64,000 nucleotides of DNA from a virus. Lineage: Duplodnaviria; Caudoviricetes. Position numbers and translations under genes: made by a program. Positions 2,101 to 50,912 of this stretch are shown here, piece after piece. Each line of letters opens with the position of its first letter. Position 1 is the stretch's first letter. The stretch lies in IMG/VR virus record IMGVR_UViG_3300010356_000549, positions 11,107 through 75,106 of that record; one strand, 5' to 3'. The notes under the pieces were generated by a model that was not told where the DNA came from, made no database searches, and was given only the letters and a program-made list of their open reading frames with translations.

Positions 2101-2125
2101 AAGGAGTCGTGTTATTGCCTAGTGG

Positions 2126-2168
2126 AACCCAGCGGATTGTGGCGCAAGCTCGTCCGCTGGGTTTTTTT
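2126..2168 (+). terminator. Rho-independent terminator
   Basis: 11-bp perfect stem AACCCAGCGGA / TCCGCTGGGTT followed by a T-tract. Confidence 0.85.
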
Positions 2169-2169
2169 A

Positions 2170-2197
2170 TTGACGCTGCGGAACTTTGAACTATCGT
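2170..2197 (+). promoter_or_regulatory. Sigma70-like promoter of terS, predicted leaderless
   Basis: TTGACG-16-TATCGT; ATG 2203 is 5 nt downstream of the -10. Confidence 0.6.
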
Positions 2198-2202
2198 GGG
2201 GC

Positions 2203-2748
2203 ATGACTACCAAGAAAAGCCCTGCCAGATCGCGCACTAAGCCTAAGGATAACACCAAGGTTAAGGAGGACACGATCAGGCGGAAGAATCGAATGTTGAA
2301 AGCCTTGGCGGATACCAAGGGGAACATCTCAGCGGCCTGTGACCGGGTGGGGGTGGACCGCATTACCCACTACCGCTACATGGAGAACGACCCTGCCTAT
2401 GCCAGCAAGGTTAAGGAGGTCGAGGAGAGGTTGGTGGAGACGATTGAATCCCTGTTCATCAAATCGACGGTCAAGGCCGATGACAGGCGTTCGATGAAGT
2501 GGATTCTGGAGCGGTTGAACCGGGCGCGTTGGGGTAAAGTTGAGACTCACGAATTGTCCGGGCCGGGCGGGGAGCCTATACGCACCGAGGGCACTATCAC
2601 GGTGGCGACCCTGCGCCAGTATATCCCTGACCAATCTTTATGCGATGCCGTTATCGACATGGCTCGCTCAAAACCTCGCGTGATTCAGCCGTCCTCTGGT
2701 GAGGCCGTGGCCAAGAAACGCGATGAGGATGAAATCGGAATGAACTAG
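2203..2748 (+). CDS. terS: Terminase small subunit (start revised to ATG 2203)
   Basis: N-terminal HTH (ALADTKGNISAACDRVGVDRITHYRY), C-terminal K.ETHELSGPGGEPI motif, position upstream of terL. Confidence 0.8.
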   Translation: MTTKKSPARSRTKPKDNTKVKEDTIRRKNRMLKALADTKGNISAACDRVGVDRITHYRYMENDPAYASKVKEVEERLVETIESLFIKSTVKADDRRSMKWILERLNRARWGKVETHELSGPGGEPIRTEGTITVATLRQYIPDQSLCDAVIDMARSKPRVIQPSSGEAVAKKRDEDEIGMN

Positions 2749-2760
2749 ACATATAAAAGC

Positions 2761-3459
2761 ATGAGCATGAAAAGAAAAGACACAAAAGGCAATCGCACGG
2801 CGACATTAGACGTGCGAGTAATGGCACTGGCAGACCTACAGGAGCACCCAAGGAATGCCGAGATACGCAAGCACCCAGCTCCGGGAACGGCTAAGTGGGA
2901 GACACTGAAGAAGTCGCTGAAACATGATTACTTTGATCCCATCGTGCTCAACCTAAGGAACGGCCAACTGGTATCGGGCCACCTGCGCAGGCGCGTGATG
3001 ATGGAGGATGACATGTACACCCATGCGAGTGTGGTGTGTGTGGATTATGATGAACCCACCCACATGGCGAGAATGTTGGCGGCCAACAAAAGCGTGGGGG
3101 ACAACGACCTTGAGGGTCTCAAACAATGGTTCTCGGAGTTCTCGACCATTGATGACTTTAATTTTGACATAACGGGCTTTGACATGGGGGAGATTGACGG
3201 GATGGGTAACTTTGACCCTGCTTTCGACTTTGACGACGAGGATGACACGACCGGGGAGCCGCCACCAGAGGCGGGGGAGGCTGATTACCGGGGGATTCGC
3301 TACCTTCAACTCATCTACTCACCGGAGGAGTATGAGGAGATCCAGACCTTGATTGCTGCCTACAAAAAGGCAAAAAACAAGGAGCTGACAGCTACCTTCG
3401 GGGACGACTGTAATGACTTCGCAAACATCGTGCTCCACCTGTTTCGTCATGCAAGTTAA
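2761..3459 (+). CDS. ParB N-terminal (ParBc) domain protein with acidic linker and possible ribbon-helix-helix C-terminus
   Basis: LADLQEHPRNA...LKKSL....DPIVLN...LVSGHLR (ParB GxxR motif); C-terminal strand-helix-helix pattern IRYLQLIY-SPEEYEEIQTLI-...-FANIVLHL. Confidence 0.8.
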   Translation: MSMKRKDTKGNRTATLDVRVMALADLQEHPRNAEIRKHPAPGTAKWETLKKSLKHDYFDPIVLNLRNGQLVSGHLRRRVMMEDDMYTHASVVCVDYDEPTHMARMLAANKSVGDNDLEGLKQWFSEFSTIDDFNFDITGFDMGEIDGMGNFDPAFDFDDEDDTTGEPPPEAGEADYRGIRYLQLIYSPEEYEEIQTLIAAYKKAKNKELTATFGDDCNDFANIVLHLFRHAS

Positions 3460-4429
3460 GCGTATCCGAGAGCTTCCCTTCCGGGAGGTTTACCTGCCTC
3501 CGTGCCTCACTGAGGCGGAGACAAACGCCAAGCTCGGCACCCTACTAAATGATTCCGACTTTGATGAGGACAAAATTTTCCGGGAGAACGTCAATGCCTA
3601 CTGTGCCGAGACAAAGGCTCCCCTTTTTTTCTTGCGGAGGGGGATTATCTCAAAGGAGCTGGTCGTCACCGCATTCAACTCGTTCCTTAAAGCGGCTGGC
3701 AAATCTTACAACCGAGGCATGGCGTCTGGTTCTGACCCTGGGGAGGAAGCCCTGTCTGAATTGCTGAGGCTAACCGGGGCAGTGGCTTACCGTAAAGCCA
3801 AAGGCAACGCTACCCGCTATGAGGTGCTGTGCTCTGACGGGAGCTGGTCAAACACGTCCTATGCGGCTCCCATAAACTCAGGGGTGGCGGGATTTTACCC
3901 CAAGACACCCCGAGTGCCTTACTGCCGATTGACGGCATTCACTCAGAACCATGTGGAGGAGTTCCGGGCCGGGCTGCCCTTGGTGCATTTGGTGGATAAT
4001 GTTTACAAGGCGCTGGTTCCTGACAGCTATGCGCTTCAACGGGAGGAAGCTAACCGAACATCACCGGACTTTGTGATCAAAGACACGTCTTTCACCACCA
4101 TCACGGTCAACAAAAACTGGCAGACAGCATGCCATACCGATAAAGGCGACTTCGAGCAGGGCTTTGGGAATTTGGTGGCTCTGCGCAAGGGGAAATACTC
4201 CGGGGGATTCACTATTCTGCCAAGATACCGGGCCGGGGTGGACCTACAAAACGGTGACGTGCTGCTGATGGACGTTCATAAGGTGCATGGGAACAGCAAG
4301 ATCGTGAAGATGGCACCGGGGGCGGTCAGGCTTTCCTTAGTGCATTATTACCGGGCGGACATGATTAATTGTGGCACGCAGAAGGATGAGCTGGAGGAAG
4401 CCAGACGCAAACGTCAAAAGCTGCTATGA
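3449..4429 (+). CDS. TET/JBP-family 2-oxoglutarate/Fe(II) dioxygenase, paralog 1 (start revised to ATG 3449)
   Basis: FTTITVNKNWQTACHTDKGD (HxD), MDVHKVHGN (distal His), RLSLVHYYR (2OG-binding Arg) in the double-stranded beta-helix arrangement. Confidence 0.85.
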   Translation: MQVKRIRELPFREVYLPPCLTEAETNAKLGTLLNDSDFDEDKIFRENVNAYCAETKAPLFFLRRGIISKELVVTAFNSFLKAAGKSYNRGMASGSDPGEEALSELLRLTGAVAYRKAKGNATRYEVLCSDGSWSNTSYAAPINSGVAGFYPKTPRVPYCRLTAFTQNHVEEFRAGLPLVHLVDNVYKALVPDSYALQREEANRTSPDFVIKDTSFTTITVNKNWQTACHTDKGDFEQGFGNLVALRKGKYSGGFTILPRYRAGVDLQNGDVLLMDVHKVHGNSKIVKMAPGAVRLSLVHYYRADMINCGTQKDELEEARRKRQKLL

Positions 4430-4827
4430 TCATCCGCAAATTCAGCCGCTCTGACGAGGCATGGATTAAGCCGATATGGATTCAGGGAGAAAAAATGGGT
4501 GCCTTCGGTGCCTTTTTCTTCATGTGGAGCGGCTTAGTGCAGGGCAGGCCCAAAGGAGTCGACGCCGTCGTATGTCAGGGCAAGGGGTTTATGCGGTTCG
4601 TGAATAAAAACGGGGTATGTGAGGTCAAGGAAATCATAGTTGCCGAGTCTGCCCGTCGTCAAGGCGTGGGGCGAGCATTACTTGAGGAGCTGCCAAGACC
4701 TATCGTGCTGGAGACCAATGAATGGAACGAGAGCAGCCTGCTATTCTACAAGAGTTTGGGCTTTCAACAAAAAGGATCAAGAAGGACGCCCAAAGGTAAG
4801 GTCTTGATCCAGCTAGTGAGGAAATAA
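4426..4827 (+). CDS. GNAT-family acetyltransferase
   Basis: Acetyl-CoA motif A IIVAESARRQGVGRALL; motif B SLLFYKSLGF. Confidence 0.9.
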   Translation: MIIRKFSRSDEAWIKPIWIQGEKMGAFGAFFFMWSGLVQGRPKGVDAVVCQGKGFMRFVNKNGVCEVKEIIVAESARRQGVGRALLEELPRPIVLETNEWNESSLLFYKSLGFQQKGSRRTPKGKVLIQLVRK

Positions 4828-4828
4828 C

Positions 4829-5431
4829 ATGTGTGGAGTCGTTGCGTGGATAAAGGGAGGCCGGAGAAGCGTGCCGGGGATTTGTAAATTGCTGGAGGAG
4901 TCCGCTATCCGAGGAGTTCATTCATTTGGTTTTTATGGGCCGGGTGGCACCTCCAAGCACCATAGGCTGGCGGAGGCCGTGAAGCAAATGCCCATGGCAC
5001 CGTTCATCTTCCATAACCGTTATTCCACCTCAGGGGACTGGGATGACCATAATAACAATCAACCCATCATCTCCGGGAGCGTGGGAATGGCCTTTAACGG
5101 GACTTTGGATATGAGAACCAAGGAGGAGATGGAGGCGGCCCACGGGGTCAAGATGCGGACCTACAATGATGGGGAGCTTGCGTTGCTGGCTTACCTCAAG
5201 GGGGGCGACCGGGGGCTGATGGACTTTATCGAAGAGACGGGAGGCTCATTCGCAGGCGTGTTCTTGGAGCCGGGGAGACTGTTCGCATACCGGAATACCA
5301 AGCGACCCTTATGGGTGGTGGATGAGGGGAGTCTTGCTGTCATAGCGTCCACTCAGGATATCCTCTCGCGGGCGGGCTTTAACGGGGCTGAGGAATTGGA
5401 GGCAGGGGAAATACACTCATGGACACTGTAA
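4829..5431 (+). CDS. Class II (Ntn) glutamine amidotransferase-like protein
   Basis: N-terminal MCG nucleophile Cys; RG.HSFG; FHNRYST; NNQP; FNGTL; NDGE; R..KRPL. Confidence 0.9.
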   Translation: MCGVVAWIKGGRRSVPGICKLLEESAIRGVHSFGFYGPGGTSKHHRLAEAVKQMPMAPFIFHNRYSTSGDWDDHNNNQPIISGSVGMAFNGTLDMRTKEEMEAAHGVKMRTYNDGELALLAYLKGGDRGLMDFIEETGGSFAGVFLEPGRLFAYRNTKRPLWVVDEGSLAVIASTQDILSRAGFNGAEELEAGEIHSWTL

Positions 5432-6318
5432 ACAGATATTTGGAGTATCACCTCCGATCCGCCAAAGAACGGGATATTGATCCGGCCAACGATGCGCTGA
5501 GATATTTGTCAAACCGTTTTGAGCTAAACAGGGAACAAAGGTATTGGTTGGCCTTCCTTTATGCCACCTGCTACTCCTCCACGACTGCCTACTACATGTA
5601 CAATGAGTTCCCCGACTTTGAGACGGTGGACCCAAAGCGCATGACCAGATGGTGGGAAGCTAACCGGGACAAGCTGCTGTTTCAGACCGACAGGAGATGG
5701 ACACGCAGCCGGAATCAATGGGTGGATTGCTTCCTCTCTTACCGCTCCTTAGTGGGGAGCGTAGGGAGCCAACACGCACTATTCAAGAGTGCCCTACGAC
5801 GCGCAGGAGGGTGTAATCGAGGTGCCTACGACATAGCCTTCTCCCTCAGTAGCACCATCTTCACGTTTGGGAGGTTTACCCTATTCCTGTATCTGGATGC
5901 CATAAATGCCATCACGGAAACATCGTTGAATCCACATAGCCTAGACTTAGTCAACGCTGCCTCTAGCCGGGGAGGATTGGCCTTCGCAGTAGGGATGAGT
6001 GTAGAGAGTAAAGATTACCCCAAACTCAATCGCAAGTTTAAGGAGTTGGAGGTGGCCGTGGGGGGGCTACCTATAGATGACCAGTTCAAGACGGTGTGGG
6101 CTATGGAAACTTGCCTGTGCGCCTTCCGCAAACACTGCCAGGGGAATAAACGATGGGTTGGCTACTACATCGAGAGGCAGCGCAAGGAGCTGGAGGCGAT
6201 GCAGGAAAAGGTTGCGACGGGGGTGAATTGGGACGTTTTGTGGGACTTTAGGGCGGAAACGTATAAGGATAAGCATCTTAAAAATGAAAAACGTAAAATT
6301 AATAGCAGTTGGAGGTGA
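5419..6318 (+). CDS. Amino acid:DNA transferase (aGPT-Pplase/AADT family, helix-hairpin-helix glycosylase-like fold)
   Basis: RYWLAFLYATCY, LLFQTDRRW, FGRFTLFLYLD and METCLCAFRK resemble phage thymidine-hypermodification AADTs; adjacent to a P-loop kinase. Confidence 0.7.
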   Translation: MDTVNRYLEYHLRSAKERDIDPANDALRYLSNRFELNREQRYWLAFLYATCYSSTTAYYMYNEFPDFETVDPKRMTRWWEANRDKLLFQTDRRWTRSRNQWVDCFLSYRSLVGSVGSQHALFKSALRRAGGCNRGAYDIAFSLSSTIFTFGRFTLFLYLDAINAITETSLNPHSLDLVNAASSRGGLAFAVGMSVESKDYPKLNRKFKELEVAVGGLPIDDQFKTVWAMETCLCAFRKHCQGNKRWVGYYIERQRKELEAMQEKVATGVNWDVLWDFRAETYKDKHLKNEKRKINSSWR

Positions 6319-6826
6319 GCCAGCCAGCGGGAAGACATCGGTATTTCGACATGTCCAGAGCAAGCTGGCACCGATGGGGCGGGAGTTCCGTTACAAGCTG
6401 GTCAGGGGCAGGATGAATGCGGCGGGCGACGTGCTTATGCTGGGGGTGTTTGACGGCTCCTTACATGAGGGGACAGACAAGCTGAGTATGGCGGTTCAGC
6501 CGGACCTTTTGGCGTTCCTGGATGTGCTGGAGGCCAAGGGTAAAAAAGTGGTGATAGTCTTTGAAGGGGACAGGTTATTCAACGGGGCGCTGTTTGATAA
6601 GGTGGAAGAGGACTGTTCGCTGTTTGTCTTGACAACCAACAGGCAAGCGGAGAACATACGAGCGAGGGGGACGAACCAGACAGACGCCTTCCTCCTATCC
6701 AAAAAAACCAAGGTTGCGAACATCTGTAAACGGTTTAAGCATACCCCAATAGAGAACAATCACCCGGAGTCTATGGAGGAGGCGGCGGAGGTGATCGTGA
6801 AGGAAATCAAAAGGCTCCTCTCATAA
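6284..6826 (+). CDS. P-loop nucleotide kinase, likely 5-hydroxymethyluracil DNA kinase
   Basis: Walker A GGEPASGKTS, GTDKLSM, IVFEGDRL, R.RGTNQ...F...KKTK; directly downstream of the AADT. Confidence 0.7.
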   Translation: MKNVKLIAVGGEPASGKTSVFRHVQSKLAPMGREFRYKLVRGRMNAAGDVLMLGVFDGSLHEGTDKLSMAVQPDLLAFLDVLEAKGKKVVIVFEGDRLFNGALFDKVEEDCSLFVLTTNRQAENIRARGTNQTDAFLLSKKTKVANICKRFKHTPIENNHPESMEEAAEVIVKEIKRLLS

Positions 6827-6830
6827 GGCC

Positions 6831-7766
6831 ATGGAGACAATCAAAAGAAACAAGGTATTAACGGACAGCGACACTGCGGCAATGGAGGGCTCGACCCTGC
6901 GCAAAAAACCATCTATGGTCATTAAGGGGGGGCACCCCCTTGGGGTTTTTTGTGCCGATACCGGGAGCTGCCTGCTCAAGTATTTGCCACAAGTGGTCCC
7001 CCGAAAAATATGGCTGCCCGCCTATAATGCGCTCGAAGACGCAGCGACCATGTCGGATAACCGGGGGATGGCGTCCGGGGAGCTGGATGACGAGGAGGCC
7101 ATGAAGCTGGCCATCCGGCAAGGCGGCATTGGTTTCCATAGGGTGAACAAATACCGCATCCAAGTGGTGTATGAGGGCAACAAGGTTAGCAGCGTGAACA
7201 GGTCAAAGCCATCCATGGGAGGCATAGTGGGATTCTTCGGGAGCGGCCCAAGACAGCCCTTCTGTAGGGTCACCGCCTATGCTCAGAAGGATTTTGTGAG
7301 GTTTAAACGATCATGGCCATTGGTTCGGGCGGTGAATAGCGTTTATCAAAAGGAGATGCCCCACAATTATGAGATACAGGAGGCAGCTTTGGCGGCTTCT
7401 AAAGGGCAGGATTTTATCATTACAGGGACGGCCTTCTCTACCCTGACAGTCAACCGCAATTTCCAAACGGCATGTCACTATGATCGGGGGGATTTTAAGG
7501 AGGGCTTCGGAAACCTGTTTGTCATACGCAAGGGGCAGTATGAGGGAGGCATTACCTGCTTCCCTCAGTATGACATGGGCGTGGACATGCAGACCGGGGA
7601 TGTGCTATTGATGGACGTTCACCGCCTTCACGGCAACACGCCTATCAAACCCAAGGAGCCGGGGGCGGTGCGGCTTGCCATTGTAATGTATCTAAGGGAA
7701 GACATTCTCAAGTGCTCCTCTATGGAGGAAGAGTTGAAAAAAGCCAGAATTGTTACCGCACTATGA
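6831..7766 (+). CDS. TET/JBP-family 2OG/Fe(II) dioxygenase, paralog 2
   Basis: FSTLTVNRNFQTACHYDRGD, MDVHRLHGN, RLAIVMYLR; clearly homologous to 3449-4429. Confidence 0.85.
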   Translation: METIKRNKVLTDSDTAAMEGSTLRKKPSMVIKGGHPLGVFCADTGSCLLKYLPQVVPRKIWLPAYNALEDAATMSDNRGMASGELDDEEAMKLAIRQGGIGFHRVNKYRIQVVYEGNKVSSVNRSKPSMGGIVGFFGSGPRQPFCRVTAYAQKDFVRFKRSWPLVRAVNSVYQKEMPHNYEIQEAALAASKGQDFIITGTAFSTLTVNRNFQTACHYDRGDFKEGFGNLFVIRKGQYEGGITCFPQYDMGVDMQTGDVLLMDVHRLHGNTPIKPKEPGAVRLAIVMYLREDILKCSSMEEELKKARIVTAL

Positions 7767-9265
7767 ACACGCTGTCGGAACAGGAGTACCAGAAGGCAAT
7801 CGAAGTGCTCATAGCTAAGGCCAGAACCGACTTCCTGACTTACTTTCACCTGTTTAATCCACAGGGAGCCGGGGCCATTATTTTGGGTGACCTTCACCGC
7901 TACCTGATTGAGCTTACCCAACAAGTGTACGAGGGAGGACCGGAGCGGGCGAATAATGCTGTGTCCGTTCCTCCGCAACACGGCAAGAGCACGATTCTAT
8001 CCGTGGAGGCACCGAGCTGGCTGCTGGGAGTTTCCCCCAACATATCCATCGCCATCACGGGTTTCTCCTACAGCCTTGTGACCAAGTTTTCAAAGGCAAT
8101 CAGGAGCCGTTTGGAGCATCCACTTTATCAGATCATCTTTCCAGGGGTTTACCCCGCCAAAGGGTCAAACAAGGAGGATGAATGGGAGACAGCCGTAGGG
8201 GGCAGCGTGATTGCCAAATCTTCCGGGGCAAAGCTGACCGGGCGACGGGTCGACTGGTTGATCATGGATGACGTTCACCCCGGTCGAGCCGAAGCGGAGA
8301 GTCCATCCATGAGGCGGAAGGTCATTGAGTGGTATTTCGCGGACTGTCTTACACGCTTACACCCCAAGGCGAAGACGTTTCTGGTGGGCACCCGCTGGCA
8401 CCCGCACGACTTGATTGGGCACCTGACTTCTCCCGAGTATCAAGCGGAGCTGGACCAAGAGCAAAGCTCCCGGAAGTTTACCAAAGTCAATATTGCGGCG
8501 ATTGCGGAGGAAGGCGTGCCGGACCCTCTGGACAGGCAACCCGGAGAAGCCCTATTCCCTGAGGAGCGTCCTTTGAGCTACCTGAAAAGCATCAAGGCGG
8601 CCATACCCTCCTACGAGTGGGACAGCCAGTACCAAGGCAAGCCTCGCTCTGCTGCGGGCGGGCAAATCGACCTTACCAATCTCCACTACCTGACTCCCGA
8701 TAACATACCGTGGAATGACATAGACGAAATTGTCAGGGGGTGGGACTTGGCCATGAGCGAGAAACAGACTGCGGACTATACCGCAGGGGCTTTGGTGGGG
8801 ATCAACTGGGATACGCGGGCGCTGTATATCCTGCACATCTACCGGAGGAGGATGGCGTGGGCCAAGATGCGGAAGGCCATCCTGGACACTGCGGCGATTG
8901 ACCTGAGGGGGTATCCCGCAAAGAAAGACGTGACATCCAAAAAGGTGCTGCGTGTGGGGCTGGAGGGGGTGGCCGGGTTCAAAGGGGTGGTTGAGGACGT
9001 GCGGCAGGAGCTACTGGGGACCGTCAAGGTGGAGTTGCGCAACCCGCCATCTCGATCACAAGGCGGAGGCAGCAAGCTACTTCGGGCACAGCCTTGGCTG
9101 AATAAGCTGGAGAAGGGGCTTGTTTATGTGGTCCGGGGCGACTGGACTAAGGATTTCATTGATGAGCTTGACCACTTCCCTGATGGGCCTAAAGATGACC
9201 AGATTGATGCCGTATCCATTGGGAATGAGATGTTTGACAGGCGGGCGCAATTATTGATTGCCTAA
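7763..9265 (+). CDS. terL: Terminase large subunit (start revised to ATG 7763)
   Basis: Walker A PPQHGKS, Walker B LIMDD, GTRWH, nuclease domain GWDLA...DYTAG and DDQIDAVS. Confidence 0.95.
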   Translation: MNTLSEQEYQKAIEVLIAKARTDFLTYFHLFNPQGAGAIILGDLHRYLIELTQQVYEGGPERANNAVSVPPQHGKSTILSVEAPSWLLGVSPNISIAITGFSYSLVTKFSKAIRSRLEHPLYQIIFPGVYPAKGSNKEDEWETAVGGSVIAKSSGAKLTGRRVDWLIMDDVHPGRAEAESPSMRRKVIEWYFADCLTRLHPKAKTFLVGTRWHPHDLIGHLTSPEYQAELDQEQSSRKFTKVNIAAIAEEGVPDPLDRQPGEALFPEERPLSYLKSIKAAIPSYEWDSQYQGKPRSAAGGQIDLTNLHYLTPDNIPWNDIDEIVRGWDLAMSEKQTADYTAGALVGINWDTRALYILHIYRRRMAWAKMRKAILDTAAIDLRGYPAKKDVTSKKVLRVGLEGVAGFKGVVEDVRQELLGTVKVELRNPPSRSQGGGSKLLRAQPWLNKLEKGLVYVVRGDWTKDFIDELDHFPDGPKDDQIDAVSIGNEMFDRRAQLLIA

Positions 9266-9298: not shown

Positions 9299-9859
9299 AT
9301 GGGCAAAAATTACGAAATACTACAACCACTTGGAACAGGCGTCTTAATCAAGAGAAGCAAGCCGAGAACCGTCACCGAGGGAGGCATTCATTTGCCTGAA
9401 ACGGAGGTGGAGCGGCCACCAGAAGGGCTGGTCTTGAGGACTGGGACCGGGCCCAAGAAGGCGGAGGCGGATAAATGGGGCGGCTTTACGGTGGAGCAGG
9501 GCGACTTTGTGCTGATAAACAGGTATGGAGCCAGGGATGTCACCGACGACCTCGCCATAGTGAAATCTGAGGACATTCTGGCGCGTATCGAGGGAGGGGA
9601 ACTGTTCCCGCTGGACACCACGTTACTGATTCGCGTCCTCCCGAGAGAGACGCAGGCGGGCTCCATCGTATTGCCCGAGTTCTCGCGCATGACTCAGGAG
9701 TTTGGTGTGGTGGTCGACCGGGGCGATAGGTGTAAAATCATCCATGAGGGCGATTATGTTTTCGTGGCATCGACTCAGGGGATGCACTACCGGGCGCATG
9801 GACAGGATTACATCCTGCTTCGGGAGGAGGCTGTCAAGGCATACGCTGACAACCAGTGA
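9299..9859 (+). CDS. groES: Tandem two-domain GroES/Cpn10 co-chaperonin (Cpn20-like)
   Basis: Domain 1: LQPLGTGVLIK...TEGGIHLP...GTG...VEQGDFVL..RYG...EDILA. Domain 2: LFPLDTTLLIR...GSIVLP...G.VVDRG...EGDYV...YILLREEAV. Confidence 0.85.
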   Translation: MGKNYEILQPLGTGVLIKRSKPRTVTEGGIHLPETEVERPPEGLVLRTGTGPKKAEADKWGGFTVEQGDFVLINRYGARDVTDDLAIVKSEDILARIEGGELFPLDTTLLIRVLPRETQAGSIVLPEFSRMTQEFGVVVDRGDRCKIIHEGDYVFVASTQGMHYRAHGQDYILLREEAVKAYADNQ

Positions 9860-10605: not shown

Positions 10606-12012
10606 ATGTTTGAACAGTTAAAATCAGCCTTTTTGCGTCGCAGAGGTGAGCCTGACTTGAGCCGGGCGACTCCATCAGAGCTTGCCATGTTGTCCCGCAT
10701 AGGTAACCGAAAAGAGCGGGAGTTCATTGAGTCTAAGCTGGGCATCCCGCTTCACAAATTCAGTGACTTTTCCTCCTACCTATCCACTGGACATAAGCTG
10801 GTTTGGGCATCTTATCGTTCATGCAAGCTAATTGCGGCGGCCATGCTATCGGCTGATTTTAAGATCATATCAGTAGGGGGTCAGAGCCAATACACGCTGG
10901 TTCAGCTTCCCCCGCCACCTGTAAAGGGGGAGACTGACCCCATCTACTTCTCATCGGGCGGCTTTATCAAAAACCCCAACCCTTATGACTCATGGGAGGA
11001 GTTCGTGGAGATGACTGTTTTCCACCTGGAGTTGACAGGTAATGCCTATTGGCTCAAGGATGAGATTGACCTAAGTGGGCGGCCTTCTGCCTTGTACCCT
11101 TTGTTACCCCACAACATGGGGCCAGTGCCGGGCAAGAAAGAAAAGGTGGCCAGCTATGAATACAAGGTCAACGGCATTATCAAATCGTTCAAGCCTGAGG
11201 AGATCATCCACCTGAAAACCACAAACCCGGTCAACCTAATGCTGGGCATGGGGTCAATTGAGCCGTCCCAGCCGCTGTACAACCAGTTCATCAACAAGAA
11301 CAATCTGGATGAGAAGTTTGTGGAGAACGGTGCCCAAATATCCGGGGTACTGTCCCGCGAGGATGCCGAAGGGCTGGACTCGGAGGACTGGGACCGCTTC
11401 AAGAAAAAATTCAACTTGGATTATGCGGGCAAGGCCAACGCCGGGAAGACGGCTTTCCTTAACGGGAAGTGGTCATATCACCGCCTTGGTATGAACATGG
11501 CCGAGATGCAGGCGTTGGAACGGGAGAAGTGGACGGTTGAGCAAATCTTCATGAACCATGGTGTGCCCCTTTCGGTGGCCGGGATTCAGGGGGCGGCTAA
11601 CTACGCCACCGCTTCGCAAGATGAACGAAACTTCCGCAAATACAAGGTTGTGCCTCTGCTCGACATGATCGTGGGCAAGATCAACTCAGAGGGCTTTATC
11701 CAAGCTAATGATCCCAACTACACGCTGGTGTATGAAATGTCCGGTCTCATTGACGTGGATCAGATCGTCAAGGAGATGCTACCTTTGCTCAAGGCTGGAG
11801 TCATTACTCGCAACGAGCTTAGGGAAAAGATCAATATGCCGATCATCACAGACAACCCAATGATGGACGAGTTGACGGTGGAAATGACCACAATCCCACT
11901 GGCATTGGCCGGGGTGGGTAATCCTGCTGATTCCGATCTTGCCCCCAAGGAGACGCCTAAGGCGACAAAAGGAGGAGTGAAGAAAAAACGCTATGTCAAA
12001 AACATTCGTTAG
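10606..12012 (+). CDS. Portal protein (HK97/lambda-like Phage_portal family)
   Basis: LELTGNAYWL, LYPLLPHNM, F.PEEIIHLK, GMGSIE, ENGAQISGVL, GVITRNELREK. Confidence 0.93.
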   Translation: MFEQLKSAFLRRRGEPDLSRATPSELAMLSRIGNRKEREFIESKLGIPLHKFSDFSSYLSTGHKLVWASYRSCKLIAAAMLSADFKIISVGGQSQYTLVQLPPPPVKGETDPIYFSSGGFIKNPNPYDSWEEFVEMTVFHLELTGNAYWLKDEIDLSGRPSALYPLLPHNMGPVPGKKEKVASYEYKVNGIIKSFKPEEIIHLKTTNPVNLMLGMGSIEPSQPLYNQFINKNNLDEKFVENGAQISGVLSREDAEGLDSEDWDRFKKKFNLDYAGKANAGKTAFLNGKWSYHRLGMNMAEMQALEREKWTVEQIFMNHGVPLSVAGIQGAANYATASQDERNFRKYKVVPLLDMIVGKINSEGFIQANDPNYTLVYEMSGLIDVDQIVKEMLPLLKAGVITRNELREKINMPIITDNPMMDELTVEMTTIPLALAGVGNPADSDLAPKETPKATKGGVKKKRYVKNIR

Positions 12013-15000
12013 TAGGAGCACGGCGAGCGGGCGGGCCATGGACCGTGCCCGAGAAGCTGGGCAAAACGACCTCCTATTCGCAAGGTACCGCAAGTCACCC
12101 CAACCTCCTCCAGGGGGCTGGAATGCGGGGAACGTGACCACCTCTGTTCACATCGCCATAAACAGGGACATTGTGAACATCCAAAGGATGGAAAGGGCCA
12201 GGGGCATAAAGGCACTGACTCCAATCCTGACCAAGTTTATGGTCGAGCAGGTCGAGCAGATCATTGAAGTTGCCCTTATGCGGGCGCGGGTGATGTACGG
12301 TATCCGCAAGTCTAAGTCGGCCATTATTAATGCGGATGCGCATGTGTCCTTATGGGAGGCTGCGATTATGAACGAGCTTTCCGGGACCGGGGTGCTGGTT
12401 TCCCTTACCCAGCCCGCGCTGTCGACCGTTCATCAAAACGTCTATGGGAAGATTGGGCTGGTCCTAAATGGGGAAAACAACGTAGTCAACCCGCCTAGGC
12501 TAATGGCGCGGATGGAGGCCGTGGCTACACGCATCACCGCTATCGGGGAGACTACTCGGGCGCGGGTTAAAAGGGAGGTGATTGACAGCGTGGAACGGGG
12601 CAACACGGTGTTCGAGGTGGCCGAAAGTATCCGGGCGCGTATGCCTGAGATCGTCACCAACCGGGTGCCCACCATCGTCAGGACCGAGATGGGGAGGATC
12701 AGCGACGACGCCACCAAGTTTGCCATGAAAAACTCTAAAGTGGTTAGCCACATGAGTGTAGTTGGGTGCGAGGCCGTAGAGCCAGGCATTCCCACCTATA
12801 AGGGGAGGCCGACATGTAACATCGAGAACGTTCCCATTGAAGACGAGCAACTGCTGGAGTTCCACATCAACCACACGGGCGTGATTATCGCATCCAAGTT
12901 TTTCCCAGCCCGTATTGCGGGGCAGCCCACACGGTACGTGGCCATACCTGCGGGTGTGGCTCCAATATCCCCCAACCTTATGCCGCCGGGGGTGATTCAC
13001 CCAGAGGACTTGAGTGTGGACGAACTGGCAAATACTCTCATGGGCTACGTGGAGGAGCACCCCAATAACTACCCTGCGATTGAGGCGCTGCTGGTCGACT
13101 CTTACAAGGTGCCCAAGGCGGATTTTGATGATGCCGTGAAGAGGCTCAGGAAGACGCATAGTGGGTTCAATAGCAGGATGAGTAGGATATTCCTCTGGCC
13201 TAAGGCCGACCTAAACAACGCGGAAGCGCTGGCTGCTCGAATGACCTCCTACGTGGACAAGCACAATCCAACCGCGCTGGAGATGGCCATGTCGGCAGTC
13301 GACGTGGGGGCACCTGTTAAGACCGTGGAGGAGGCGGTTGCTATCCTACAGCGTTCCGGGCGGCTAATGGACGCGGTGACTGACCCTTCTCTGGTCAAAA
13401 ACTCCCTTGAGGCTGGATATGCCATCTACATCAAAGTTGCGAATAATGAGGCTTTCACCATGTCCTTAGACGACCTGCGCAAGTGGTGGTGGAAGTCAGG
13501 AGGGACTCTGGATATAGTCGAGCAGGGATTTGACGAAACCCTAATCATCTCCCCGAACGCATACATTCGATTCAGCCTAGAGGAGTGGAAAATCCATGAA
13601 AACGAAATGGTGGGGCGTCTCCAGCGGATAGGCGTGATGGATGAGGAGGGGGGCTTGATTGACCCCTGGAAACGGACCCTGGTGAAGACACCACCATTCT
13701 CCCGAAGGATCATAACACCACCTAATGTGCCTCCGGTTGACCTCAATATGTTCCCGAGTGGTAAATCCCACCTCAGGGATTTGAACGTCACGGAGCTGGC
13801 GGATACGTTGGTTAAATATGTTGATAAGTATCCACGTTCCTATGAGCAGATGGAGAGGCTGGCGGAGGGTTACCTTGTGCCTGAATGGGCTTTCAAGGAG
13901 GCAGTCAACAGGATCAGAAAGACGCACGATGGATTTGCCCGCGACTCTGCCCGTATATTCCTATGGGAGCGGTCTTTAGGGAGTAACCCGGTGGCTCTTG
14001 CCGCACGCCTTATGGACCTTGATACCAGGCACCCCAACTCTGAGCTGGAATTGGTTATCTCCGCACTGGATAACGGCATACCCTTGCACGTCTGGAAACA
14101 AGCCGAGGCGTTGGTGCAGGATAGAGGAGGGATGCCTAATGCCGTCACGGAGCCATGGAGGGTGCGCAATTACCATCAGGCGGCCTATGCCCTAAATGAC
14201 ATGGTTTTTCACACCCCTAGGACGAGCAGTACCCTGAGTGAGCTTAAGAGGCTGTGGGTGGACCGGGGCGGTGATGGTGGCACCATATTTGAACGGGGGG
14301 CGGATCAGCTTTATCGCGTGTACCCTTCCCGATGGATTGAGAGTTCGATCGGTATGGACCCTGACGCTGGCACACCCGCCTTGGAAGCCTTCTATGCACG
14401 TCTCCAGGCTTTAGGGGTGGTGGATAAGGACAGGAACATCATAGATGTGTGGCTTCGCCCTAGGTCCGAGCCTGTGATACCTCCACAGCGGGTGCAGGCA
14501 GCCAAGCCAAAAAAACCTGTAACGTCGTCGAGGCCTCCGTCCCCCCCGCTCCCGGAGGGTAAGAAAGCAATCAGCCCTAAGCCGGGGAGGCGGAAGCTAC
14601 ACCCCAATATTGGTAAATCCGCCCAGTATAACGCAGCTCTAAAGGCCGAGGAGATTCTTAAAGAATCCCTGAATTACAAGACAAGTGCGGAGTGGTCGAA
14701 GGAGTTCATTGCTCTGGACAATGAGAAGATTACCCTACTGAACAACATACCGACCCTGAACAAGGTATATCGCAATGTTCTACAAGCCCACGAAAAGGAG
14801 CCGACCAACGCCTTCCTTAAGACCACTCTGGCCTCCACGAAAAAGGACTTAGACAAGAAAGAGGCTAGGCTAAAGGTGGTCGAGGAGGAGATGGTAAAGA
14901 TGCGCAGCGAAAAGGCACCCGCCTATGATGTAATGGTGGGCCGGGCTGAGGGCAATATCAAAAAGATAACCGTGCTGGACGAGCTGAACTCGCTCATCTC

Positions 15001-17131
15001 CGGGGTATCCCAGGACTGGATGATGTACCCGCCGAGTAAGGAGGGCTTCAAGCAAATCATGAGGGAAGCCAAGGAGGGACTCGCCTTCATCGACCACTTG
15101 GTCCCAGAAAGTAAGATGGGCGGCCTTAAGCAGATTCACCTGCGTTATGCGGACAGGGCATATGCGGAGGCAGGAGCACAGGTCAACATTTACCTCGACC
15201 CTCACACCGGGCACTTGAAAACCATGGCGCACGAGCTGGGGCACGTTTTGGAGTTCCAATCGCCGGAGGTGATGCAGAACAGCCGATTGTTTTTGTTGAA
15301 ACGGGCGAAGGACCGGGAGGCGACCATTCAAGGCTTCCCCGGAGCGCAAGCGTGGGAGCAGTTTTGGGTGGGCAAGAACGGGGAGCCTATCCTAGGCAGG
15401 CCGGGCGGTGGGTATGTTGAGAAGTACACCAAGGCATACGCGGGCCGGGTTTACAACACCCGTGCCATCAACGGAAATACTGCCGAACAGTTGGCGGCCC
15501 ATAGCGCTGACCACTACGCTTCGGAGGTGATGACTATGGGGATTGAAAACCTCCTAACCGATCATGTCCAATTCGCCAAAGACGACCCTGAATGGTTCCG
15601 CTTTGTGGTAGCAAACCTGAGGGGCGATTATGTTGACAACGATATCCTGGCAGAGGCTACCGCTGCGGCTGGACCTAAAAAACCGAAGCCAGTCAAGCCG
15701 AAGCCCGTGGTCATTAAGCCGACCAAGCCGACCAAGCCAGCTCCCCCCAAAAAGAAGGTGCCCAAAAAGAAGCCGACGCCTAAGCCGACGCCCAAACCGA
15801 AGCCGAAGCCGAAGCCTATCGTGGTCAAGCCCAAGCCTGCACCTAAAAAGAAGGTGCCCAAAAAGAAAGTGCCCAAAAAGAAACCCGTAGCGGCTCCCGA
15901 TACCCCGATACCCAAACCGTCTCGGGCACCTGAGGCACCGATGGCACCGGAGAGGGTGCTGCGAACCGAGCCTGATACTTTGCCACTCCACACCAATCAG
16001 GCAGTCTCTGAGCAGTATAACGCTGCTCTAAAGGCCGAGGAGATCCTTGCTGAGTCGAGAAGCTACTCTCAGACAAAACTGCCTGAGGTTCGGCTGAATA
16101 GGCTTTTGGCTAACCGGGCGGAGTCTGCTGAGACCCTGGTGTGGGCGCAGAAAGTCATAAACGAGCTGGAGGCGCTGGGGCCAAACGCCACACCGGAGCA
16201 GGTGGCGGAGCTGGCGGAGTTCAAGGCCATCAAGGAACGCAACTTGGGAGCATTAAAGGACTTCGACCGGGCTATCAAAAAGAACTCAAAGGCAGGGCCA
16301 CTTTTTATAGACATGGTGGCCAAGGCGGAGGGTAACTCTTTACTGGATAGCCTAAAGGTGAAGGACCAGCTTGACAAGTGGGACACCAGACCCTCCATGA
16401 TCAAGGAGGATATTGAGCCGGAGATTTTAAAGGACATGCTGGGCAAAATCAAGGGCCGGGCCATGGACGGGCTCGCCTTCTTTGCCCACATGGTCCCTGA
16501 GGAGATGATGGGCGGCCTAAAGGCGGTGAAGATAAAGCTCAAGGACCGGGGGGAATGGGACGAGAAGACCAAGACGGTTTACCTTGAGCCGGGGGGCTAC
16601 CGGACGGAGCAATTGATGGCGCATGAGATGACCCATGCTTTGGAGGACGCATCACCTGAGGTGCTGGCCAACAGTAAGAAGTTTTTGCTCAAGCGGGCTA
16701 AGGAGCGCAAGGCGGTCGTGGGCACTCACCGGGGCATGACCAAGGACGAGGAGACCCTGATTGGGGAGGATAAAAAGCCCATTTTAGGCAAGGGCCAAGA
16801 GGAGGCCGGGACCAATGCGTATGCCGGGAAGCTGTATATCACCAGATGGTTGAAGGACGGCCTGACTGCGGAGGAGTTGGAGCACCCAGCCTACTCGGAC
16901 GCCATCTACGCCACGGAGGTGATGACGATAGGCATTGAAAAGCTAATGACCGACCATGTGAAGTTTGCCAAGGAAGACCCAGAGTGGTTTCGCTTTGTGA
17001 TAGCCAACTTCCGGGGCAAATACGTGGACAACGAGACTCTGGCGGCAGCGGAGGCGGCTAAGGCTTCGGCTGCGGCAACTGCCCCCAAGCACGGGCCGAG
17101 GATGATCAAAATCAGGTGGGGTGAGGGGTAA
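11993..17131 (+). CDS. MuF (SPP1 gp7-like) head morphogenesis protein fused to two unknown repeats and two zincin metallopeptidase-like repeats
   Basis: N-terminal ITAIGETTRARV...IVRTEMGR...HINHTG (MuF); AHELGH..SEVMTMGIE and AHEMTH..TEVMTIGIE (HExxH plus distal Glu); position between portal and protease. Confidence 0.8.
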   Translation: MSKTFVSRSTASGRAMDRAREAGQNDLLFARYRKSPQPPPGGWNAGNVTTSVHIAINRDIVNIQRMERARGIKALTPILTKFMVEQVEQIIEVALMRARVMYGIRKSKSAIINADAHVSLWEAAIMNELSGTGVLVSLTQPALSTVHQNVYGKIGLVLNGENNVVNPPRLMARMEAVATRITAIGETTRARVKREVIDSVERGNTVFEVAESIRARMPEIVTNRVPTIVRTEMGRISDDATKFAMKNSKVVSHMSVVGCEAVEPGIPTYKGRPTCNIENVPIEDEQLLEFHINHTGVIIASKFFPARIAGQPTRYVAIPAGVAPISPNLMPPGVIHPEDLSVDELANTLMGYVEEHPNNYPAIEALLVDSYKVPKADFDDAVKRLRKTHSGFNSRMSRIFLWPKADLNNAEALAARMTSYVDKHNPTALEMAMSAVDVGAPVKTVEEAVAILQRSGRLMDAVTDPSLVKNSLEAGYAIYIKVANNEAFTMSLDDLRKWWWKSGGTLDIVEQGFDETLIISPNAYIRFSLEEWKIHENEMVGRLQRIGVMDEEGGLIDPWKRTLVKTPPFSRRIITPPNVPPVDLNMFPSGKSHLRDLNVTELADTLVKYVDKYPRSYEQMERLAEGYLVPEWAFKEAVNRIRKTHDGFARDSARIFLWERSLGSNPVALAARLMDLDTRHPNSELELVISALDNGIPLHVWKQAEALVQDRGGMPNAVTEPWRVRNYHQAAYALNDMVFHTPRTSSTLSELKRLWVDRGGDGGTIFERGADQLYRVYPSRWIESSIGMDPDAGTPALEAFYARLQALGVVDKDRNIIDVWLRPRSEPVIPPQRVQAAKPKKPVTSSRPPSPPLPEGKKAISPKPGRRKLHPNIGKSAQYNAALKAEEILKESLNYKTSAEWSKEFIALDNEKITLLNNIPTLNKVYRNVLQAHEKEPTNAFLKTTLASTKKDLDKKEARLKVVEEEMVKMRSEKAPAYDVMVGRAEGNIKKITVLDELNSLISGVSQDWMMYPPSKEGFKQIMREAKEGLAFIDHLVPESKMGGLKQIHLRYADRAYAEAGAQVNIYLDPHTGHLKTMAHELGHVLEFQSPEVMQNSRLFLLKRAKDREATIQGFPGAQAWEQFWVGKNGEPILGRPGGGYVEKYTKAYAGRVYNTRAINGNTAEQLAAHSADHYASEVMTMGIENLLTDHVQFAKDDPEWFRFVVANLRGDYVDNDILAEATAAAGPKKPKPVKPKPVVIKPTKPTKPAPPKKKVPKKKPTPKPTPKPKPKPKPIVVKPKPAPKKKVPKKKVPKKKPVAAPDTPIPKPSRAPEAPMAPERVLRTEPDTLPLHTNQAVSEQYNAALKAEEILAESRSYSQTKLPEVRLNRLLANRAESAETLVWAQKVINELEALGPNATPEQVAELAEFKAIKERNLGALKDFDRAIKKNSKAGPLFIDMVAKAEGNSLLDSLKVKDQLDKWDTRPSMIKEDIEPEILKDMLGKIKGRAMDGLAFFAHMVPEEMMGGLKAVKIKLKDRGEWDEKTKTVYLEPGGYRTEQLMAHEMTHALEDASPEVLANSKKFLLKRAKERKAVVGTHRGMTKDEETLIGEDKKPILGKGQEEAGTNAYAGKLYITRWLKDGLTAEELEHPAYSDAIYATEVMTIGIEKLMTDHVKFAKEDPEWFRFVIANFRGKYVDNETLAAAEAAKASAAATAPKHGPRMIKIRWGEG
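15670..15900 (+). repeat. Low-complexity Lys/Pro linker with short tandem DNA repeats
   Basis: AAAAAGAAGGTGCCCAAAAAGAA-type units and AAGCCG runs encoding KKKVPKKK / KPKPKP. Confidence 0.85.
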
Positions 17132-47370: not shown

Positions 47371-47901
47371 ATGGGAACGACATTGAATAAAGCAGAGTTG
47401 GAGCTGAGGATTGATGAAGCCGTCAAACTAAGCCTAGCTAAAATCCCCGGTTCCGACGTGGCGATAGCGGGGGCGTGCGTCCTTTACGCGCATGAGACGG
47501 CTAAGGTTCTACAGGAGGAGGGCTACACCGCGTTGGTGCAGGGCGGCTCGGCATTCTGGAGGATGGCACCTGATAGCGAGCCGGGGATGACTTGGTTTGG
47601 GTATGGCTTCAACAAGGACGAGGCTGCCCACGCGGTCACGAGGGGCTACCTTCCAGAGTTACACGCTTGGGTGGTGGTGATGGAAACCGAGGAGCTGGTC
47701 GATTGCACCGCGAAACACCAAGCTACACAATTGCGCAACACCTTCCTGTCCGAAGGGATCAGGAAGGAATGGAGGGAGCAGTACACCCTACCCTCCACGA
47801 TATGGAAAAAATGGAGCGACGTAGGGGCGCGGGAGAGATATGCTGCGGACGATTTTGCCACAGCCATCGTGAACAGAATGATCAAAAAATACTTTTTATG
47901 A
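47371..47901 (+). CDS. Hypothetical protein (start likely ATG 47371)
   Basis: GACVLYA, GGSAFW, LPELHAWV, VDCT. Confidence 0.65.
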   Translation: MGTTLNKAELELRIDEAVKLSLAKIPGSDVAIAGACVLYAHETAKVLQEEGYTALVQGGSAFWRMAPDSEPGMTWFGYGFNKDEAAHAVTRGYLPELHAWVVVMETEELVDCTAKHQATQLRNTFLSEGIRKEWREQYTLPSTIWKKWSDVGARERYAADDFATAIVNRMIKKYFL

Positions 47902-50900: not shown

Positions 50901-50912
50901 ATCCATAGATAA
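47898..50912 (+). CDS. polA: Family A DNA polymerase with N-terminal degenerate uracil-DNA glycosylase (family 4-like) domain and 3'-5' exonuclease (start revised to ATG 47898)
   Basis: UDG-like AKIVVV..., QPEIILTLGKWA, ITTARG; ExoI FDCET, ExoII GHNLKYD, ExoIII YAGGD; motif A DLSQAELR, motif B KAINFGFLYG, motif C IHDS. Confidence 0.95.
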   Translation: MTENHWPNINVIEGSQAKIVVVCDLTTKAVWERGMVMTIPALDLFKTEAERNGFGPEDFVFVSPSRPIAEEDQATESKTAKAMGIDRAEFLEVIKAYQPEIILTLGKWALRQLKGNAIKITTARGTAQVIDVAGQEYPVLPLLSPREVLRFPERKVIFRTDFMQLASLKEHGYDVDQFREGAQGKGYRWCLDLAHLLDNPPQQIAFDCETVGLDRYDPRFELVTVQITTRKGESLVVPLHIEWWNNPELMSLESAAAPRLTKTIRKKLIGQLKELLENPKVAVVGHNLKYDIHAMRTAGVRIANWYADTMQLAFVVDENMQRMGLDDCVRRWLPQFAGYADEFNANIDKSNMHKVPHSQFLGYAGGDTEVTWRLAGVLLDEAKRDILQWGTFIKVQMPALRAFVGMEEVGVGINTTALTEFGVYLEQRHAELQAKLLDQVPPTLLRAHEEKGCRFSRADFVIDCLFGEDSIRFLEDGTVDQHNGSRLKAKVWTKGGQPSTSSTDHLPYFDHCEWVRDLMELSKVSKMISTYVGHDLKEWQQPIKRTKTGLLPKVVRDILAERGYVAPLQVAGRLREPDQEIVNFIRSNYPISASIPDRELSCKINGITFDTMGRVFRECREEATGFWQYLKNKETAPRIHPSFHLHRTVTGRAASSNPNGQNLPKRGALAKAYRRIFIPTEGYTFIECDLSQAELRIAAWMAGEPEMLRIYRTGGDIHSATAAAVMGVSERVFNAGLHSSTLLHTVAAEWPGANSYLLAAGSKMMEVTLKAFLDYKRFAAKAINFGFLYGMGWRKFQVYARVEYGLTFTEAEAQAIRKTFFRKYAGLEEWHDQTREFVKDRGFVRALHGALRHLPNIESDDEGVIGGASRQSINSPVQRFASDLGLIALSRFVRDCDHDRMRPCLFIHDSNIIEAKHDCVEEAADALKWYMQSQPLMEWFGLESPIPIIADISVGVNLEQMTAWNGRDGTPNLLGRKPEWASDRETPLGFRGVNQPVKKRFIHR

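Follow-up and report, generated by a model that had tools for sequence, protein, structure and literature searches.

A phage DNA-modification cassette with two TET/JBP dioxygenases, predicted to hypermodify thymine after replication

The 64,000-nucleotide stretch analysed here (the window) comprises bases 11107-75106 of a single linear 75,106-bp IMG/VR virus contig, IMGVR_UViG_3300010356_000549, from an uncultured phage (Caudoviricetes), with a CheckV completeness of 86%. At positions 2761-7766 it carries seven plus-strand genes encoding, in order, a ParB-like protein, a TET/JBP dioxygenase (TET1), a GNAT acetyltransferase, a class II glutaminase, an amino acid:DNA transferase (AADT), a P-loop kinase and a second TET/JBP dioxygenase (TET2). 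We conclude that it probably belongs to a published class of systems, led by a ParB-dependent thymine dioxygenase, that hypermodify thymine wholly after replication, and that it works by the steps proposed below. An earlier note on this DNA had listed the same seven genes, and all were found in that order, at those positions and on that strand. The note had also presented them as a candidate new pathway, a claim that the literature overtakes, since the same scheme was proposed in 2021 (PMC8989533) and ParB-dependent T-dioxygenases were shown in 2026 (PMC13229309). The cassette type was described in the first of these years and partly proven in the second, and the window holds a further member. 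Rather than revealing a new pathway, it offers a compact test case for the final base and for the role of the glutaminase, neither of which we found assigned in the published accounts of such cassettes.

The seven genes occupy 5 kb and are compact and apparently intact; their tightest junction is an overlap of 47 nt and their widest a gap of 4 nt. They sit between a terS-like gene and terL, adjoining the DNA-packaging genes (Table 1). Hidden Markov model (HMM) searches with Pfam and PHROG profiles confirmed the families that the earlier note had named for six of the genes; the kinase has no Pfam match of its own, and its family (PF18751) was reached through orthologues. Synteny of the module in well over 100 viral contigs shows that the arrangement is not a product of chance.

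Both dioxygenases exceed the PF12851 cut-off of 34.9 bits by a wide margin (78.7 bits for TET1 and 77.9 bits for TET2), and their active-site motifs are intact (H-T-D ... H-G-N in TET1 and H-Y-D ... H-G-N in TET2). The HxD...H iron ligands and the 2-oxoglutarate (2OG) arginine were invariant over 16 aligned TET homologues (H216, D218, H267 and R281, TET2 numbering). Both window proteins also end in an invariant cysteine followed by a conserved acidic/basic tail of 16-19 residues, which may correspond to the extended C-terminus past C280 of 5mYOX176. An ATG at 3449 may be the true start of TET1. A single-sequence scan with TET2 returned zero relatives, and an alignment-based scan was needed to find them; PDB profile and single-sequence searches with the TET and AADT alignments gave no match.

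TET2 is 41% identical to TET1 over 273 aa (BLASTP, E 1e-79), while TET1 shares 41-45% identity with the single TET of most relatives and 54% with its nearest relative, L085_a. The contig that encodes the latter, L085, is the sole other one found with two TETs; there a ParB gene is followed by TET-a and TET-b in tandem. In the tree, TET2, L085_b and the TET of L086 form one clade (support 100/99). Because L085 carries both genes in tandem and the tree splits TET1 and TET2 among relatives, the pair is best read as an older, recurring duplication that is not unique to this phage. Speculatively, the paralogues could differ in the sequence context or DNA form that they prefer, raising the density of modification.

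The earlier note had described characterised phage TETs as enzymes of cytosine, a statement now outdated, as phage TETs acting on T have been reported (PMC13229309, PMC8256090), the first of them by Burke et al. (PNAS 2021, PMC8256090). O'Toole et al. (PNAS 2026, PMC13229309; preprint 10.1101/2025.08.14.668559) found that phage 5mYOXs of clade C1 convert T post-replicatively into 5-hydroxymethyluracil (5hmU) by oxidation, and that this oxidation is ParB-dependent both in vivo, in Escherichia coli, and in vitro. In their survey the T-dioxygenases are "consistently linked" to glutamine amidotransferases (GATases), to P-loop kinases and to AADTs; terminases are frequent neighbours, and a C5-methyltransferase is present in only 6% of pathways. 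The ParBs associated with 5mYOXs have a nucleotide-binding N domain and a C-terminal domain, with the helix-turn-helix (HTH) absent (PMC13229309).

The ParB-like protein of the window has a similar build. In its AlphaFold2 model, residues 17-110 are confident, residues 150-174 form a disordered acidic linker and residues 171-231 a helical C-terminal domain, and an HTH is absent. Its top PDB matches in Foldseek were 5K5D (ParB-N), 6SDK (ParB-CDP), Noc and KorB, and it carries the motif GHLRRR. The gene lies directly upstream of TET1, which it overlaps, and homologues directly precede a TET in relatives as well. By analogy with the published pairs, we predict that it is a candidate activator of the TETs on double-stranded DNA. 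A reading as a ParB-methyltransferase fusion, the label of PHROG 498, was rejected: the protein has 232 aa and lacks a methyltransferase domain.

The earlier note had reported no hydroxymethylase or C5-methyltransferase (C5-MTase) in the window, and this was upheld beyond it by six-frame HMM searches of the whole contig, in which PF00303 (thymidylate synthase/hydroxymethylase), PF02511 (ThyX) and PF00145 (C5-MTase) all gave no match; both TETs, which served as the positive control, were found in this way. The annotated replication module (AAA ATPase, DnaB, PolA, primase, helicase, RecA, exonuclease and RNase H) contains no supplier of a modified nucleotide, and neither do the 11 kb outside the window, where GH114, YkuD and AlkB-like oxygenase genes are found. 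Because the contig is incomplete, relatives were tested too. PF00303 was absent from all 25 viral records with the same module, 19 of which are at least 90% complete, and PF00145 matched in four, with the Pfam cut-off exceeded in three of these. Three complete TerL-related phages have neither a thymidylate-synthase-family gene nor a C5-MTase. A supplier in the missing 14% of the genome is unlikely. Close relatives of the contig's last gene were also sought, to judge completeness, and none were found.

The kinase (180 aa) has a Walker A motif (GEPASGKT), a Walker B motif and an FEGDR motif. PF18751 (Ploopntkinase3) was matched by 18 of 21 syntenic orthologues that are 29-47% identical to it (best E 9.6e-24). 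BLASTP found no match between the kinase and gp54 of phage M6, which was shown by experiment to be a 5hmU DNA kinase (5-HMUDK; Lee et al. 2021, PMC8989533). ViI gp67 and PhiW-14 gp37 are further reference members of the 5-HMUDK family. With the kinase portion of P0008, a natural AADT-kinase fusion, the window kinase shares 43% identity. In this 859-aa protein, from a 5.8-kb contig, one open reading frame comprises an AADT (45% identical to that of the window), a P-loop kinase and a C-terminal stretch with a ParB-N-like motif, LTPHPNNPNTH. If it is not an assembly artefact, P0008 provides a Rosetta-stone link among three components of the cassette.

The PHROG label of the window kinase, "terminase small subunit", repeats the RefSeq annotation of M6 gp54 (L084:11686-12249) and of Cr30 gp114 (L002:2789-3334), and PHROG 800 bears the same label. 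It is contradicted for gp54 by the kinase activity, and for the relatives of gp54 and PHROG 800 it looks like a propagating mis-annotation.

The glutaminase is a single-domain protein of 200 aa, whose best PDB match is the glutaminase domain of PurF (6LBP). Its N-terminus is M-C-G, and 78 of 79 orthologues begin M-C; C2, R64-Y-S-T-S-G, N90-G91 and D114 are kept in at least 95% of orthologues (65 distinct). As in PurF and GlmS, these would be the catalytic cysteine, the motif R-Y-x-T-x-G, the oxyanion pair N-G and the conserved aspartate. A fused synthase or acceptor domain is absent, therefore the acceptor partner must be a separate protein. The AADT is a candidate: the glutaminase gene lies directly upstream of the AADT gene in all 80 loci kept from the AADT-based scan, and in the window the two overlap.

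The AADT was modelled with high confidence (AlphaFold2 pLDDT 92.8). Its top Foldseek matches were 8Z2N and 8Z2M, structures of PaMx11 gp46, the glycinyltransferase of 5-phosphomethyl-dU (5-PmdU), whose fold is an all-helical one of two bundles; probability was 1.00 and TM scores were 0.62-0.64, and the next matches were unrelated. Sequence identity to gp46 is only ~15%, and the link is seen by fold only. The invariant cysteine C234 lies in an ETxLC motif, which aligns with ETVLC of M6 gp51. It corresponds to Cys247 of gp46, the nucleophile, which makes a Michael addition at C6, chemistry characterised on 5-PmdU (PMC11472151). The GNAT carries an acetyl-CoA motif, RRQGVGRA, and natural AADT-GNAT fusions exist (P0009 and P0010).

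In the scheme that we propose, TET1 and TET2, assisted by the ParB-like protein on double-stranded DNA, would very probably hydroxylate the thymine methyl group to give 5hmU, a step demonstrated for other members of the enzyme subclass and extended to the window by analogy. The P-loop kinase would then, with only slightly less assurance, convert 5hmU to 5-PmdU, as indicated by homology, synteny and the natural fusion. At the AADT, whose fold and cysteine are observed, the cysteine would attack C6, the phosphate would be expelled and an amine would add to the exocyclic methylene. There is nearly an even chance that this amine is glutamine-derived ammonia from the N-terminal nucleophile (Ntn) glutaminase, which would yield 5-aminomethyl-dU (5-NmdU) directly. 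With rather more doubt, the GNAT might acetylate the amine to 5-acetylaminomethyl-dU (5-AcNmdU), the base of PaMx11 reached by another route. Masses given for these products are 257 u (5-NmdU) and 299 u (5-AcNmdU) (Lee et al. 2021, PMC8989533).

The ammonia route is suggested because GATase-AADT adjacency is invariant, the glutaminase site is intact, the cassette annotation (Pfam and PHROG) holds no pyridoxal phosphate (PLP), radical S-adenosylmethionine (radical-SAM) or flavin adenine dinucleotide (FAD) tailoring enzyme, and a GNAT is present as in PaMx11. Tentatively, and at somewhat less than an even chance, the glutaminase and this AADT subclade may form a two-subunit amidotransferase acting on a phosphorylated DNA base, followed by GNAT acetylation, with TET paralogues that complement each other in specificity. 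The position beside terS and terL would suit the modification of DNA that has been replicated and is awaiting or undergoing packaging. As for the core of the mechanism, in which the TET/JBP enzymes make 5hmU on replicated DNA and feed the kinase and AADT, the earlier note had put it forward as its own proposal; it is already published, and it is well supported because gene content, complete relatives without a hydroxymethylase and published experiments on the enzyme subclass all point to it.

Several observations weigh against this scheme or parts of it. The kinase itself has no PF18751 match at E<=0.1, and in hhalign its family profile matched M6 gp54 weakly (probability 62%, E 7.6e-5). For the ammonia channel, the evidence is the invariant adjacency and chemical logic, and among the longer homologues we found AADT-GNAT and AADT-kinase fusions and no GATase-AADT fusion. 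The AADT might instead transfer a free amino acid (e.g. Gln, Glu, Gly or Ser), as in M6, ViI and PaMx11. The first three steps would be unchanged; the Ntn protein would then deamidate, amidate or trim the residue and the GNAT would acetylate the rest, giving a new amino-acid-derived thymidine rather than 5-AcNmdU. Besides the missing fusion, this alternative draws on the fact that the donor of all characterised clade-2 AADTs is an amino acid or a polyamine (PMC8989533, PMC13458397), and that the window AADT shares its Pfam family, fold and size with the characterised ones. We nevertheless consider it unlikely, though far from negligible, as the glutaminase retains the full residue set for glutamine hydrolysis and no other domain, its unvarying place before the AADT resembles a two-subunit amidotransferase, and the cassette lacks the PLP, radical-SAM and FAD tailoring enzymes noted above.

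Other objections concern the start of the pathway. The support for this phage consists of sequence and models, and at 86% completeness a supplier could lie in the missing part of the contig; among TerL-related phages (70-97 kb, mostly without the cassette), one of ten has a thymidylate-synthase-family gene and two of ten a C5-MTase. One enzyme of the published class, 5mYOX176, oxidises 5-methylcytosine (5mC) as well as T in vitro (PMC13229309). The substrate might be cytosine, methylated to 5mC by a C5-MTase of the host or of the unsequenced ~14%, oxidised by the TETs to 5-hydroxymethylcytosine (5hmC) and hypermodified by the kinase and AADT. Incompleteness of the contig would allow this, Burke et al. 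(2021, PMC8256090) suggest that 5hmC may in some contigs be a substrate of P-loop kinases, an HhaI-type methylase accompanies a related TET and a homologue of the kinase in Melnitz phages, and the four C5-MTase-like matches among the 25 relatives point the same way. Yet most complete relatives with the module have no C5-MTase, members of the ParB-associated clade oxidise T in E. coli (PMC13229309), and the AADT fold and cysteine chemistry were characterised on 5-PmdU (PMC11472151), all of which make a cytosine substrate improbable. Still less probable is that a hydroxymethylase in the missing part supplies 5-hydroxymethyl-deoxyuridine (5hmdU) before replication, leaving the TETs to top up 5hmU, oxidise it iteratively or act on host DNA. 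The completeness figure leaves room for such a gene and one relative in the TerL lineage, G030, has a thymidylate-synthase-family gene; its match, however, is 398.6 bits over the full Thymidylat_synt model, as expected of an ordinary ThyA, the flank of the G030 TerL shows no cassette genes, and PF00303 is missing from the module-carrying relatives, as described above. Post-replicative oxidation of thymine, followed by phosphorylation and amine transfer, remains the reading that we prefer.

The module is widespread. A scan based on the AADT found 129 related stretches, from which the 80 loci were kept, and one based on the TET found 442. The earlier note had described the two arms of the pathway as usually separate; in these hundreds of metavirome contigs they are joined. 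The commonest order is ParB-TET-GAT-(GNAT)-AADT-kinase-TerS-TerL, GAT denoting the glutaminase, and a second group has ParB-small kinase-GAT-AADT-TET-TerS-TerL. In variants from the TET scan, the GAT and GNAT are replaced by other AADT subclades and unknown genes. The closest fragments are L146, which shares 61% identity in the AADT, 51% in the kinase and 62% in TerL, and L086, with the order ParB-TET-GNAT-GAT-AADT-kinase-TerS-TerL. In the two-TET contig L085 (L085:1-5980), ParB, TET-a and TET-b precede an unknown protein of 328 aa, after which come an AADT from a different subclade (PF18724, E 3.8e-26), a kinase, TerS and TerL; the contig shares the TET pair with the window and differs in its tailoring genes. 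At L087:445-4282, as in L089-L092, L096 and others, ParB and TET are followed by a protein of 240 aa that resembles a short AADT (PF18724, E 4.9e-8), then by an unknown protein of 263 aa, a kinase and TerS; glutaminase and GNAT are absent from this common variant.

Related pieces also occur in cultured phages, namely Pelagibacter phage HTVC112P (a ParB adjoining a TET, 36%), Nonlabens P12024L, Caulobacter Cr30 and Methylophilales Melnitz. In the Melnitz records (MZ577095-MZ577098, ~3.9-8.0 kb), the related TET adjoins an HhaI-type C5-methylase and a homologue of the window kinase lies ~1.5 kb downstream, an arrangement suggesting that a cultured phage has a form of the pathway in which 5hmC is phosphorylated. 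Searched against 50,697 phage records with blastn, the cassette gave zero matches. In relatives of the TerL lineage (L147, L149, L160, L163, L169 and L176, with TerL 46-63% identical to that of the window), a ParB-like gene (45-57% identical) lies a few kb upstream of TerS/TerL and TET and AADT genes are absent. To judge from these sequences, the slot close to the terminase genes, with ParB in the lead, has the look of a variable modification island.

Table 1 Genes of the cassette and its boundaries (window coordinates)
Feature	Position	Strand	Evidence and remarks
TerS-like HTH protein	2122..2748	+	PHROG 4044/4102, E 1.9e-8 and 7.6e-7; Pfam HTH_8; upstream cassette boundary
ParB-like protein, activator candidate	2761..3459	+	PHROG 620, E 3.2e-18
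TET/JBP dioxygenase 1 (TET1, 5mYOX), predicted T to 5hmU	3413..4429	+	PF12851, E 3.9e-22; PHROG 24024, E 1.8e-73
GNAT acetyltransferase	4426..4827	+	PF13508, E 2.4e-9; PF00583, E 3e-7
Stand-alone class II (Ntn) glutaminase	4829..5431	+	GATase_6, E 6.4e-8, 33.1 bits (cut-off 27)
AADT (clade-2 aGPT-Pplase family)	5419..6318	+	PF18724, E 7e-23, 82 bits (cut-off 26.2)
P-loop kinase, predicted 5hmU DNA kinase (5-HMUDK-like, Ploopntkinase3 family)	6284..6826	+	Walker A GEPASGKT
TET/JBP dioxygenase 2 (TET2), diverged paralogue	6831..7766	+	PF12851, E 6.5e-22
TerL	7712..9265	+	PHROG 38, E 1.2e-89; Terminase_6N/6C; downstream cassette boundary

The TerS-like protein upstream of the cassette is 25-43% identical to the cassette-adjoining TerS proteins of relatives. 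Promoter and terminator scans gave counts at chance level; a strong terminator-like hairpin at 6922-6952 (9-bp stem with five G-C pairs and a T-run), ~90 nt into the TET2 coding region, may for that reason mean nothing. Elsewhere in the window, further cargo comprises a pectate-lyase-like protein (356-1102) and a GroES co-chaperonin (9299-9859), and a 1712-aa protein downstream of the portal (11993-17131) has no Pfam match at E<=0.01. The family A DNA polymerase (47592-50912, 1106 aa) weakly matches the uracil-DNA-glycosylase superfamily over residues 153-257 (E 9.4e-4, below the cut-off). tRNA genes were sought in the window and none were found. Outside it, the contig encodes a GH114 glycosidase (L001:5063-5965) and a YkuD L,D-transpeptidase-domain protein (L001:10322-11053). 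An AlkB-like 2OG-Fe(II) oxygenase (PF13532, E 7.1e-11; contig bases 717-1439, minus strand), the third 2OG oxygenase of the phage, is placed among minus-strand genes at the start of the contig; it may serve in repair or be connected with the modification.

The questions that the cassette makes accessible are which base the T-dioxygenase cassettes linked to GATase, GNAT and AADT produce, and whether the glutaminase feeds ammonia to a DNA-base transferase. If it does, a glutamine amidotransferase would for the first time be seen to act on a base of DNA, and the pathway would have reached the base of PaMx11 convergently and wholly after replication. Two diverged T-dioxygenases with one ParB provide a natural pair for studying ParB dependence and sequence specificity. 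Enzymes that place defined amines on the thymine of finished DNA are also of practical interest for DNA labelling and restriction-resistant DNA.

Among known systems, the contigs of Lee et al. (NAR 2021, PMC8989533, section 21, Fig. 2 sequences 22-25) resemble the window in combining a 5-HMUDK-type kinase, an AADT and TET_JBP with no dUMP hydroxymethylase; the authors inferred that the starting substrate, 5hmU in DNA, is the product of TET_JBP, and mentioned "glutaminotransferase" genes that they left unexplained. Their account is purely bioinformatic, and a role for ParB and a two-TET arrangement are absent from it. The 5mYOX176/ParB176-type neighbourhoods of clade C1 (PMC13229309) are alike in several respects: a ParB free of a DNA-binding domain adjoins a Tet_JBP, a neighbouring C5-MTase is absent, linked genes encode GATase, P-loop kinase and AADT, a terminase is near and the source is IMG/VR metaviromes; the tail that the published Tet_JBPs have past a conserved cysteine may also have its counterpart in the window. 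The window differs in that two diverged dioxygenases bracket the tailoring genes and terS lies upstream rather than downstream; in the published work, the pathway is followed as far as 5hmU and the final base goes unnamed.

In the kinetoplastid base J pathway, JBP1 and JBP2 likewise open the hypermodification with a Tet_JBP dioxygenase that turns thymine in DNA into 5hmU, whereas completion is by a glucosyltransferase and the kinase, AADT, glutaminase and ParB partner are absent. The C5-MT/TET 5hmC clusters of Burke et al. (2021) share a phage Tet_JBP that primes post-replicative hypermodification, often with ParB and terminase near, but require an adjacent C5-methyltransferase and include glycosyltransferases, of which the window has neither. 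The hallmark of the pre-replicative M6, ViI and PaMx11 type, a dUMP hydroxymethylase, was not found in the window's contig at its 86% completeness. With the 5-AcNmdU pathway of PaMx11 (gp46 AADT/PUGT, gp47 FAD lyase, gp48 acetyltransferase and gp49 5-HMUDK) the window shares the kinase, an AADT of the same fold with its catalytic cysteine, a GNAT and probably the end product. PaMx11 makes 5hmdU before replication with a dUMP hydroxymethylase and derives the amine from glycine through an FAD-dependent lyase; in the window, a DNA dioxygenase and a glutaminase stand in the place of these two routes.

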